Origin: a virus
Lineage: Duplodnaviria > Heunggongvirae > Uroviricota > Caudoviricetes
Virus record (IMG/VR): IMGVR_UViG_3300012275_000009
Strand: one strand, 5' to 3'
DNA length: 10,582 bases
Positions 5,389-5,631 of this stretch are shown here, piece after piece. Under the pieces are notes generated by a model. The model saw only the letters and a list, made by a program, of their open reading frames with translations. It was not told where the DNA came from and made no database searches. A program made the translations under genes and the position numbers. How positions within the stretch are numbered: the stretch's first letter is position 1; the number at the start of each line of letters is the position of its first letter.

Positions 5389-5631
5389 ATGGTGGAGCGT
5401 TGTTCTGTTTGTGAGCAGTCATTAAGTTATTCACGAGAAGTTGAACAAGATGGCGTTGAATATAAATCTTGCCCAAAATGTTCTGCTGATGCCGGAGTGC
5501 ACGTTTTTTATAAAACAATAGACTTTGGTTATAGGGATATGGGAGACGGAAGGCATATCGTTCAGTCATGGTGTCCGGCTTGTCGTTCTGGTGAAAAACC
5601 TTCTATACCACCAGCATTTAAATGTTGTTAA
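5389..5631 (+). CDS. Small Cys-rich hypothetical protein (putative zinc ribbon), moron-like
   Basis: 80-aa ORF with a good RBS (AGGAG at 5377-5381, 7-nt spacing). It has CxxC pairs at residues 5/8, 28/31 and 62/65 plus a C-terminal KCC. GC content is lower than the flanking phage genes, and it is bracketed by terminator-like hairpins. Confidence 0.5.
   Translation: MVERCSVCEQSLSYSREVEQDGVEYKSCPKCSADAGVHVFYKTIDFGYRDMGDGRHIVQSWCPACRSGEKPSIPPAFKCC

Follow-up and report, generated by a model that had tools for sequence, protein, structure and literature searches.

A small cysteine-rich protein encoded between the Q and lysis genes of a lambdoid prophage and its relatives fused to nucleases

Morons are gene-plus-terminator cargo units of lambdoid (lambda/HK97-type) phages. 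Among the small accessory proteins of lambdoid/Rac-type prophages are the Cys-rich Lar/Ral-type proteins (PF14354, phrog_6422), which function in restriction alleviation, and phage Mu encodes Com, a small zinc protein that is a translational activator of mom. Zinc ribbons and rubredoxin knuckles, such as those of the TFIIB-type (PF13453), FmdB (TIGR02605) and DZR (PF12773) families, possess two CxxC motifs about 20 residues apart, and modular defence nucleases, such as the type IV enzymes of the McrA/ScoMcrA type and PD-T4-1, combine an N-terminal recognition domain with a nuclease. In this study, the gene for a Cys-rich protein of 80 amino acid residues (aa) was analyzed in the IMG/VR virus record IMGVR_UViG_3300012275_000009 (Caudoviricetes). 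The whole stretch of 10,582 nucleotides (nt), referred to below as the window, comes from a lambdoid Escherichia coli prophage and spans its late-regulatory and lysis region, and the gene occupies positions 5389–5631 of its + strand. The 80-aa protein has the same two CxxC motifs about 20 residues apart and belongs among the small zinc-ribbon accessory proteins of temperate phages. Our results also showed that it is part of a wider, previously undescribed domain family whose members include fusions to nucleases, to a DndB-like protein and to a Tudor-like domain.

The open reading frame (ORF) starts with ATG, and its product (MVERCSVCEQSLSYSREVEQDGVEYKSCPKCSADAGVHVFYKTIDFGYRDMGDGRHIVQSWCPACRSGEKPSIPPAFKCC) contains Cys at positions 5, 8, 28, 31, 62, 65, 79 and 80, which form three CxxC pairs (5–8, 28–31 and 62–65) and a C-terminal KCC, exactly as described in the initial annotation, which had been made from the sequence of the window. 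Cys accounts for 10% of the residues, and at least three CxxC motifs were found in 1.8% of shuffled sequences of the same composition. The ribosome-binding site AGGAG is located at 5377–5381, 7 nt 5' of the ATG, and a site of the AAGGAG/GGAG type is retained in nearly all related loci. The protein is already catalogued: in RefSeq it is the hypothetical protein WP_001306866.1 of an E. coli prophage (100% identity over a 661-base query), and its whole sequence aligns with PHROG 7682 (function unknown; E 7.2e-60, residues 1–80 against profile positions 1–80 of 80). The exact protein was found on at least 1000 contigs of E. coli, Salmonella and Morganella and was unnamed every time. Its close relatives form 20 clusters at 90% identity, and 60 loci in IMG/VR and 25 in GTDB genomes encode relatives with identities of 48–100%. 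When 1.84 billion representative proteins were searched with the profile, 277 relatives were identified at E ≤ 1e-3, of which 57 were found at E ≤ 1e-10; most of the 277 are free-standing proteins of 55–100 aa. A tblastn search of 50,697 GenBank phage records returned zero matches to the protein; prophages and metagenomic viral contigs are thus the only known sources of the family. Literature searches with the accession, the UniRef identifier, the PHROG number or DGQHR plus zinc ribbon found no paper.

The median pairwise dN/dS of the gene was 0.16 (298 pairs). Given this ratio and the conservation of the cysteines in the 20 close clusters and about 170 distant homologs, a chance ORF is unlikely, and 5389–5631 is a genuine conserved gene under purifying selection. 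Two overlapping reverse-strand ORFs, 5369–5569 and 5431–5556, were rejected because both the selection and the conservation track the frame of the + strand.

In alignments of 21, 50 and 171 sequences, C5, C8, C28, C31, C62 and C65 were either invariant or conserved to 90% or more. Within the close family, C5, C8, C28, C31 and H38 were invariant, and C62, C65 and C79 were conserved in at least 90% of the sequences. The same ligand residues were prominent in the more distant homologs (n = 50 and n = 171), together with K26, S27, P29, S32, F46, G47, R49, Q59, S60 and R66. The expectation that the cysteines would be conserved in homologs was thus borne out for all three CxxC pairs and for C79, with the exception of C80. 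C79 is the last or near-last residue in many relatives, and position 80 is K in most of them and E, S or absent in others. Because C80 is not conserved, the terminal Cys-Cys is a lineage quirk rather than a family feature, and the suggestion that it might be a special metal or redox site does not hold. Lipidation or prenylation at this site, the former of which had also been suggested, was rejected for the same reason and because a reading of the sequence revealed neither a signal peptide nor a lipobox; moreover, the protein is hydrophilic (GRAVY -0.45).

H38, which the initial annotation had missed, and C79 bring the number of conserved candidate ligands to eight, which is enough for two tetrahedral sites. 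How these ligands might be divided was assessed with 144 homologs that retain the C28/C31...C62/C65 core. The N-terminal CxxC, H38 and the tail Cys were all present in 105 of the 144 and all absent in 27, and the remaining 12 were mixed. In addition, all three elements were lost in P0141, a nuclease fusion of a different subfamily, which is an independent case of loss. The finding that the three elements are kept or lost together suggests a core site formed by C28/C31/C62/C65 and an accessory C3H site formed by C5/C8/H38/C79. An alternative pairing, in which C5/C8/C28/C31 would form one site, is how the generic zinc-ribbon profiles would align these residues. On the two-site model, the gene product would be a small cytoplasmic metal-binding protein that most likely holds two Zn(II), a metal identity that we infer. 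Its core four-Cys ribbon would bear a conserved surface composed of K26, S27, S32, F46, G47, R49, Q59, S60, W61 and R66, and its accessory site would join the N- and C-termini. A one-site subfamily among the relatives retains the core L..S.Y...KSCPxCS...FG.R...QSWCxxCR. The ligand set, including the correction at C80, and the two-site model are new here.

The AlphaFold2 model of the 80-aa protein was confident (pLDDT 84, pTM 0.69). It contains a hairpin at residues 17–27, a helix that starts from C28–C31 and another helix at C62–C65, as well as short beta-bridges at residues 4 and 11 and a strand at 77–78. The modeled beta elements at 4, 11 and 77–78 are compatible with the two termini meeting. 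The zinc-ribbon or rubredoxin-like knuckle proposed in the initial annotation fits this model and the conservation of the cysteines, but the family matches are generic and below threshold. The best matches were to generic zinc-ribbon families and covered residues 4–39, and none reached the curated cut-offs (14.9 vs. 22 bits for PF13453, 12.9 vs. 34.4 for PF09723 and 19.5 vs. 31.3 for TIGR02605). Structure prediction followed by a Foldseek search, as had been advised, gave the confident model but no matching solved structure: the best E value against the PDB was 2.6, and that against BFVD was 0.09, for uncharacterised giant-virus proteins. A search of all PDB chain sequences with the family profile returned chance matches alone (E ≥ 0.29), and the 80-aa protein itself matched 0 families of PADLOC-DB 2.0.

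Several relatives carry the domain as part of larger proteins. It is fused directly to a C-terminal HNH nuclease in P0083 and P0122 and is linked to HNH via an unannotated domain of about 150 aa, referred to as X, in P0073, P0089, P0119 and P0128. In P0141, the domain is N-terminal and is followed by X and a NOV_C/PD-(D/E)xK nuclease, and the protein matches the PADLOC families PD-T4-1 and PDC-S36. Moreover, the domain is found at the C-terminus of the DGQHR/DndB-like protein P0080 and is fused to DUF3553 in P0098 and P0139. DUF3553 has been described as Tudor-like, its closest counterpart being the domain through which PcrA/UvrD binds RNA polymerase (PMC6511836). The PADLOC matches were limited to the fusion partners, i.e., mREase_IV (to the HNH part, weakly), PD-T4-1, PDC-S36 and DpdB/DndB. 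Domain X had no Pfam or PDB sequence match. Similar to the recognition domains of modular defence nucleases, the zinc-ribbon domain (ZnR) takes the N-terminal place in the ZnR-(X)-HNH and ZnR-X-NOV_C proteins, in which the nuclease is swapped and the front is kept. Some X-HNH homologs lack the zinc domain or have a DUF4379 zinc finger instead, which indicates that the zinc module is an exchangeable front end. In longer HNH homologs, the module is replaced by other N-terminal domains, which are unannotated except for DUF4379 in one of them. Different from the modular defence nucleases, the protein of the window lacks a nuclease domain, and ZnR is not one of the known readers, such as SRA, EVE, SBD and others.

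ZnR-X-HNH proteins are common in gut Firmicutes, where their annotation reads "HNH endonuclease" or "putative restriction endonuclease". They are encoded inside DpnII-type operons in two independent genomic backgrounds, in the order of Dam-like methylase, DpnII and ZnR-X-HNH, with an N6_N4 methylase following either directly or one gene further. This embedding of the fused form in restriction-modification operons is also new here. Embedding in modification-based defence systems has been successfully used to predict new defence genes (bioRxiv 10.1101/2024.01.29.577857). The operons (L094–L100, 3864–9984) are those of Enterocloster and of a background in which the nuclease is labelled Ruthenibacterium lactatiformans. 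Further genes embedded in them encode TIR-domain proteins, an Mrr_cat protein and small proteins of 176–178 aa, one of which is a weak match to PDDEXK_11, so that the loci resemble a layered defence locus.

Genes for free-standing copies also occur next to DNA-modification genes in some loci. A PF01555-type (DPPY-motif) methyltransferase is encoded directly 3' of the gene in 8 phage loci. On reading of the ORF sequence, a small methyltransferase-like ORF precedes the gene in a P2-like Tolumonas prophage. A Dam-like methylase ORF is near the gene in one metagenome-assembled genome. Finally, solitary non-prophage copies were found at one syntenic chromosomal site of several Photorhabdus species (L077, L079–L082 and L091, at about 5989–6240), which is flanked by yoaA/yoaB-like and mdtJI/zwf-like genes and lacks a downstream terminator. 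These solitary syntenic copies suggest that the protein acts alone, on a ligand that any cell offers.

Given that enterobacterial prophages and Firmicutes nucleases share one set of invariant polar and aromatic residues and that the partners are all DNA-directed, the domain would be a recognition module for a universal ligand, most likely a nucleic acid or a feature of nucleic acid. The free phage copy would then act in the conflict between phage and host over DNA, either as an anti-restriction protein that competes for or masks what such nucleases read or as a modulator of DNA-directed or DNA-modifying enzymes. We propose tentatively, and with the balance tilted somewhat against it, that the protein is a nucleic-acid recognition module whose free phage copy is active in restriction or defence conflict. 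The anti-defence factor or inhibitor considered in the initial annotation would be compatible with this, circumstantially, as the domain is fused to defence nucleases. The proposed role is of the same kind as that of the Lar/Ral-type proteins. Different from the 80-aa gene, however, the Lar/Ral genes sit in the early region, and no relationship to the Lar family was detected: phrog_6422 was matched at E 0.7, PF14354 was not matched by the protein of the window, and one distant homolog matched PF14354 at E 0.63.

Several points weigh against this proposal. No significant sequence or structure match to any characterised protein was found. The protein is slightly acidic (pI 6.05, net charge about -1 before thiolates are considered), which is untypical of a protein that binds DNA in general. 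Anti-restriction proteins are, as a rule, early rather than late products. The fused nucleases examined were from Firmicutes and metagenomes and none was found in Enterobacterales, so that a decoy would be without an obvious local target. Given that X-HNH proteins exist without it, the zinc domain may be an accessory or regulatory module rather than a DNA reader. Similarly, the invariant residues beside the cysteines could be structural rather than ligand-binding, and the co-loss pattern behind the two-site model may stem from few evolutionary events.

The gene order in the window is nin-region genes, a DUF968 gene, Q, the 80-aa gene, holin S, lysozyme, the spanins together with a 184-aa ORF, HNH, TerS and TerL. 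The Q antiterminator of 250 aa is encoded at 4348–5100 on the + strand (PF03589, E 9.5e-54; phrog_127, E 6e-109; ydfT/antitermination protein in RefSeq) and forms the upstream border of the slot in which the 80-aa gene lies. On reading of the sequence, a candidate late promoter pR' of the Q module was recognized at 5132–5175 (+), with the -35 element TTGCAT at 5132–5137, a spacer of 17 nt and the -10 element TAGGAT at 5155–5160. The motif AACGATGGG follows at 5167–5175, 6 nt past the -10 element; it resembles the promoter-proximal pause element of lambda pR', which has the same motif at an equal distance from its -10 element. A simple consensus promoter scan did not call the candidate. The block has been kept along with Q in prophages whose downstream cargo is of three different kinds. 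It is followed by an intrinsic terminator, t1, at 5204–5233 (+), the tR' of the Q module (hairpin dG -13.5 kcal/mol, z -4.2, with a U-run), whose stem is preserved by compensatory changes in L065 and L066, two loci in which this Q module is followed by different genes. Prophages with other cargo are homologous up to the T-run of t1 and no further, which places the end of the Q module and the beginning of the cargo slot at about 5233.

The cassette starts with a leader at 5234–5388 (+; GC content about 38–40%), which from about 5263 is homologous to the leader found in relatives with a lambda-type Q, as revealed by an alignment of 27 upstream regions. The TAAnnT -10-like element of those relatives is not retained in the leader of the window. 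As the leader is kept from about the transcription start (about 5263–5388) and this element is not, the cassette looks as if it was transferred into a phage with a different Q module. In the leader at about 5300–5388 and its homologs in L003–L075, the motifs AAAAATCGATCT.TGTCAATG and CTTTGCTATTGCTAAT are conserved across diverged loci about as well as the coding region and could be a regulatory RNA element or a processing site. Downstream of the gene, a second intrinsic terminator, t2, is located at 5646–5677 (+), 77 nt upstream of the holin start (hairpin dG -19.6 kcal/mol, z -3.6, with a T-run). Holin S of the lambda family (5754–6104, +; PF05106, E 5e-28, and RefSeq) is the first lysis protein encoded, and its gene forms the downstream border of the slot. 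The GC content of the cassette is about 38–41% vs. about 50% in the flanks. A search of 4900–6000 against Rfam returned sub-threshold matches alone, to AbsR25 (E 0.14) and STnc250 (E 0.72). The latter, a Salmonella Hfq-binding small RNA (sRNA), was matched with 18.7 bits vs. a gathering threshold of 42 at 5589–5681 (+), which spans the 3' end of the gene and t2, and this match is probably due to chance.

No sigma-70 consensus promoter was found on the + strand upstream of the 80-aa gene by scanning the window, and a scan of the related locus L032 gave the same result. Since the gene follows t1, its expression is predicted to be Q-dependent and late. We infer from this layout that, on the Q-dependent late transcript, no ORF precedes the gene, which lies between two terminators that Q-modified polymerase would ignore. 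The earlier proposal of delivery early in late transcription agrees with this arrangement, in which the gene is the first ORF past the promoter and terminator of the Q module.

The order of Q, 80-aa gene and lysis genes on the same strand was found in every locus with recognisable Q and lysis genes among about 85 related loci and was constant across two Q families (PF03589-type and lambda-type PF06530) and two holin families. Nearly all phage-borne copies, including those with a protein identity as low as 56%, have a hairpin with a T-run 27–58 nt past the stop codon. This terminator is homologous to t2 (GGCTGCC-loop-GGCGGCC-T6) or equivalent to it, and the copy in L032 is visibly homologous. 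Sister prophages carry other genes in the same slot: one encodes a 111-aa acidic protein there and another a lipoprotein, a 67-aa protein and a DNA methyltransferase. The complete region was found in 23 of 5426 complete E. coli genomes, of which 3918 match parts of the flanking modules. The initial annotation did not recognise the protein as a standard lambdoid late protein, which is in line with a slot filled by unrelated genes in otherwise homologous prophages. Similar to morons, the 80-aa cassette is optional, low in GC, equipped with its own terminator, located between conserved modules and replaced by unrelated genes in sister prophages. Different from morons, it has no detected promoter of its own, consistently points the same way as the late operon and seems to rely on the late promoter of the phage. 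The gene would thus be optional lambdoid cargo that entered the very beginning of the late unit together with a leader and a terminator of its own, and in this prophage its protein would be made on Q antitermination, ahead of the lysis proteins. The placement of the cassette relative to the late promoter and the terminators is a further new observation of this study.

In the relatives with a lambda-type Q, cargo encoded on the opposite strand reaches as far as the end of Q or overlaps it, so that a promoter would not fit there. This cargo looks like defence or toxin systems. The versions seen comprise RelA_SpoT plus NA37; three genes for products of 143, 399 and 236 aa; two genes for products of 144 aa (membrane) and 321 aa; and a lone 186-aa gene (loci with such cargo: L002, L003, L043 and L069, at about 3730–5830 in L002; L032, L035, L040–L042; L037, L038, L044, L048; L030, L031, L036). 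About 150 nt upstream of the 80-aa gene of these relatives is a conserved block, ...TAACGCGTACGCAAAAACT..TAAnnT.GTTAAGAGTGG..., which contains the 8-bp palindrome GCGTACGC. Within the TAAnnT element, T1, A2 and T6 alone are invariant, which is the signature of a -10 element, and the motif AAGAGTGG that follows is reminiscent of the AACGATGGG of lambda. The same block (4836–4880 in L032) was also found upstream of the late genes of phages without the zinc protein, including SfII (L093, 1501–1553), Stx2a_1447 (L092, 2501–2559), mEp460 and some Klebsiella phages. Given its presence in these phages, the block is probably the late promoter and Q-utilisation region of the lambda-type Q phages, and the conserved TAnnnT element is more likely a phage late promoter than a promoter of the cassette itself. 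In the Stx2-converting phage Stx2a_1447, a different 65-aa ORF and a terminator (2715–2922) follow the promoter-like block, and a DNA methylase, tRNAs and stx2A come after them, an equal layout with other content.

No terminator was found between the block and the 80-aa gene of the lambda-type-Q relatives, in which the first terminator comes after the gene. The pR' of lambda and Stx phages is constitutive and is terminated at tR' in lysogens, which results in the lambda 6S RNA and the StxS sRNA of Stx phages (PMC7547250). As the gene of these relatives sits in the corresponding interval, the protein may, by analogy, be made in the lysogen. The interval that holds an sRNA in lambda and Stx phages would then encode a protein. 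Different from this arrangement, the gene of the window lies after the terminator of the Q module and not before it. A more specific version of the proposal combines these observations: ZnR would be a new zinc domain that senses nucleic acid or its modification in nucleases embedded in restriction-modification operons, and lambdoid phages would deploy the free copy as a decoy or masking factor, in many of them from the constitutive pR'-tR' interval and as the first protein-coding occupant of the 6S/StxS interval. In this full form, the proposal is quite unlikely to be right.

The same layout could be explained by a lysogenic-conversion or superinfection-immunity factor that is expressed continuously by transcription from the constitutive late promoter as far as the terminator behind the gene and that protects the lysogen, for instance by targeting incoming foreign DNA together with a host enzyme. 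Such a factor would account for the absence of a terminator between the likely pR' block and the gene in the lambda-type-Q relatives, whose corresponding interval is transcribed in lambda and Stx lysogens (PMC7547250), and for the conservation of the gene-plus-terminator unit. The neighbouring slot, which is rich in opposite-strand defence-like cargo, and the presence of the domain in defence nucleases are also in line with it. In the window, however, t1 separates the promoter from the gene and the -10-like element of the relatives is not retained, so that expression in a lysogen of this prophage would need read-through. Moreover, the 80-aa protein has no catalytic domain and cannot restrict DNA alone, and it matched none of the PADLOC models. 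An immunity factor is therefore considered unlikely. A role like that of Mu Com, i.e., a nucleic-acid-binding regulator that binds late mRNA or DNA and tunes the next gene (a DNA methyltransferase or the lysis genes), is distinctly improbable. Similar to the 80-aa protein, Com is small and late and has an N-terminal CxxC and a later CPxC, two distant homologs of the 80-aa protein are labelled "phage FluMu protein Com" by NCBI, and the gene has a late-operon position. A DNA methyltransferase gene is directly downstream of it in the 8 phage loci, directly upstream in L089 (on reading of the ORF sequence) and immediately downstream or one gene further in the case of the fused forms, and com of Mu likewise has a DNA-modification gene as its neighbour. 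Most loci, however, lack an adjacent methyltransferase, and in the window a terminator and 120 nt precede the next ORF, without overlap or coupling. In addition, Com has 62 aa and one Cys4 site, to which the 80-aa protein adds a second CxxC, an invariant His and a C-terminal Cys, and the FG.R...QSWC core of the 80-aa family is absent from Com. Membership of the Com family was rejected: profile comparison with Mu Com, whose sequence as used was 100% identical to the Mu record, gave an hhalign probability of 9.9%, and PF10122, which matches Com at 36.8 bits, matched neither the 80-aa protein (none at E ≤ 1) nor the two homologs labelled as Com.

Small phage zinc proteins often act on RNA polymerase, and the gene is always beside the late promoter region. 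A TraR/DksA- or Ogr/Delta-like factor directed at RNA polymerase or transcription, which would bind the polymerase at the late promoter or beyond it, would also agree with the fusion of the domain to DUF3553, whose nearest relative binds RNA polymerase (PMC6511836). However, no similarity to DksA/TraR or Ogr was found in Pfam or NCBIfam, and nucleases, not transcription proteins, account for most fusion partners. The gene is also optional in otherwise identical late regions and is thus not needed for late transcription, which makes such a factor very improbable. The CxxC and CPxC knuckles are the pattern of rubredoxin as well. An iron or redox protein of the rubredoxin type is nevertheless hardly credible, as are claims of a non-functional ORF: no rubredoxin family was matched, no redox partner was found near the gene in any context, and the domain is fused to nucleases. 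Purifying selection, conservation across Gammaproteobacteria and beyond, and the occurrence of the exact protein on so many contigs rule out a non-functional ORF.

If the proposed role in restriction or defence conflict is correct, ZnR would be a new small domain among the modules that defence nucleases use to find their targets, and its free form, widespread in prophages of E. coli, Salmonella and related bacteria, would be a new means by which phages counter defence or protect their lysogens. If not, the gene would be one of many small zinc-binding cargo genes, now with a defined ligand set and family boundaries. The layout in the lambda-type-Q relatives further suggests that the short always-on transcript between late promoter and terminator can hold a protein gene besides an sRNA.

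Elsewhere in the window, masked runs of N at about 330–385 and 6860–6990 break two ORFs, including the Rz/Rz1 spanin region; both are intact in L001. The 184-aa ORF at 7209–7763 (+), between the spanins and HNH/TerS, has a GC content of about 34% and a hydrophobic N-terminal stretch and matches phrog_6169 (function unknown) at E 1.3e-74. As it is present only in some of the near-identical prophages (L001, L006, L011, L018 and L022), it is a second cargo gene.

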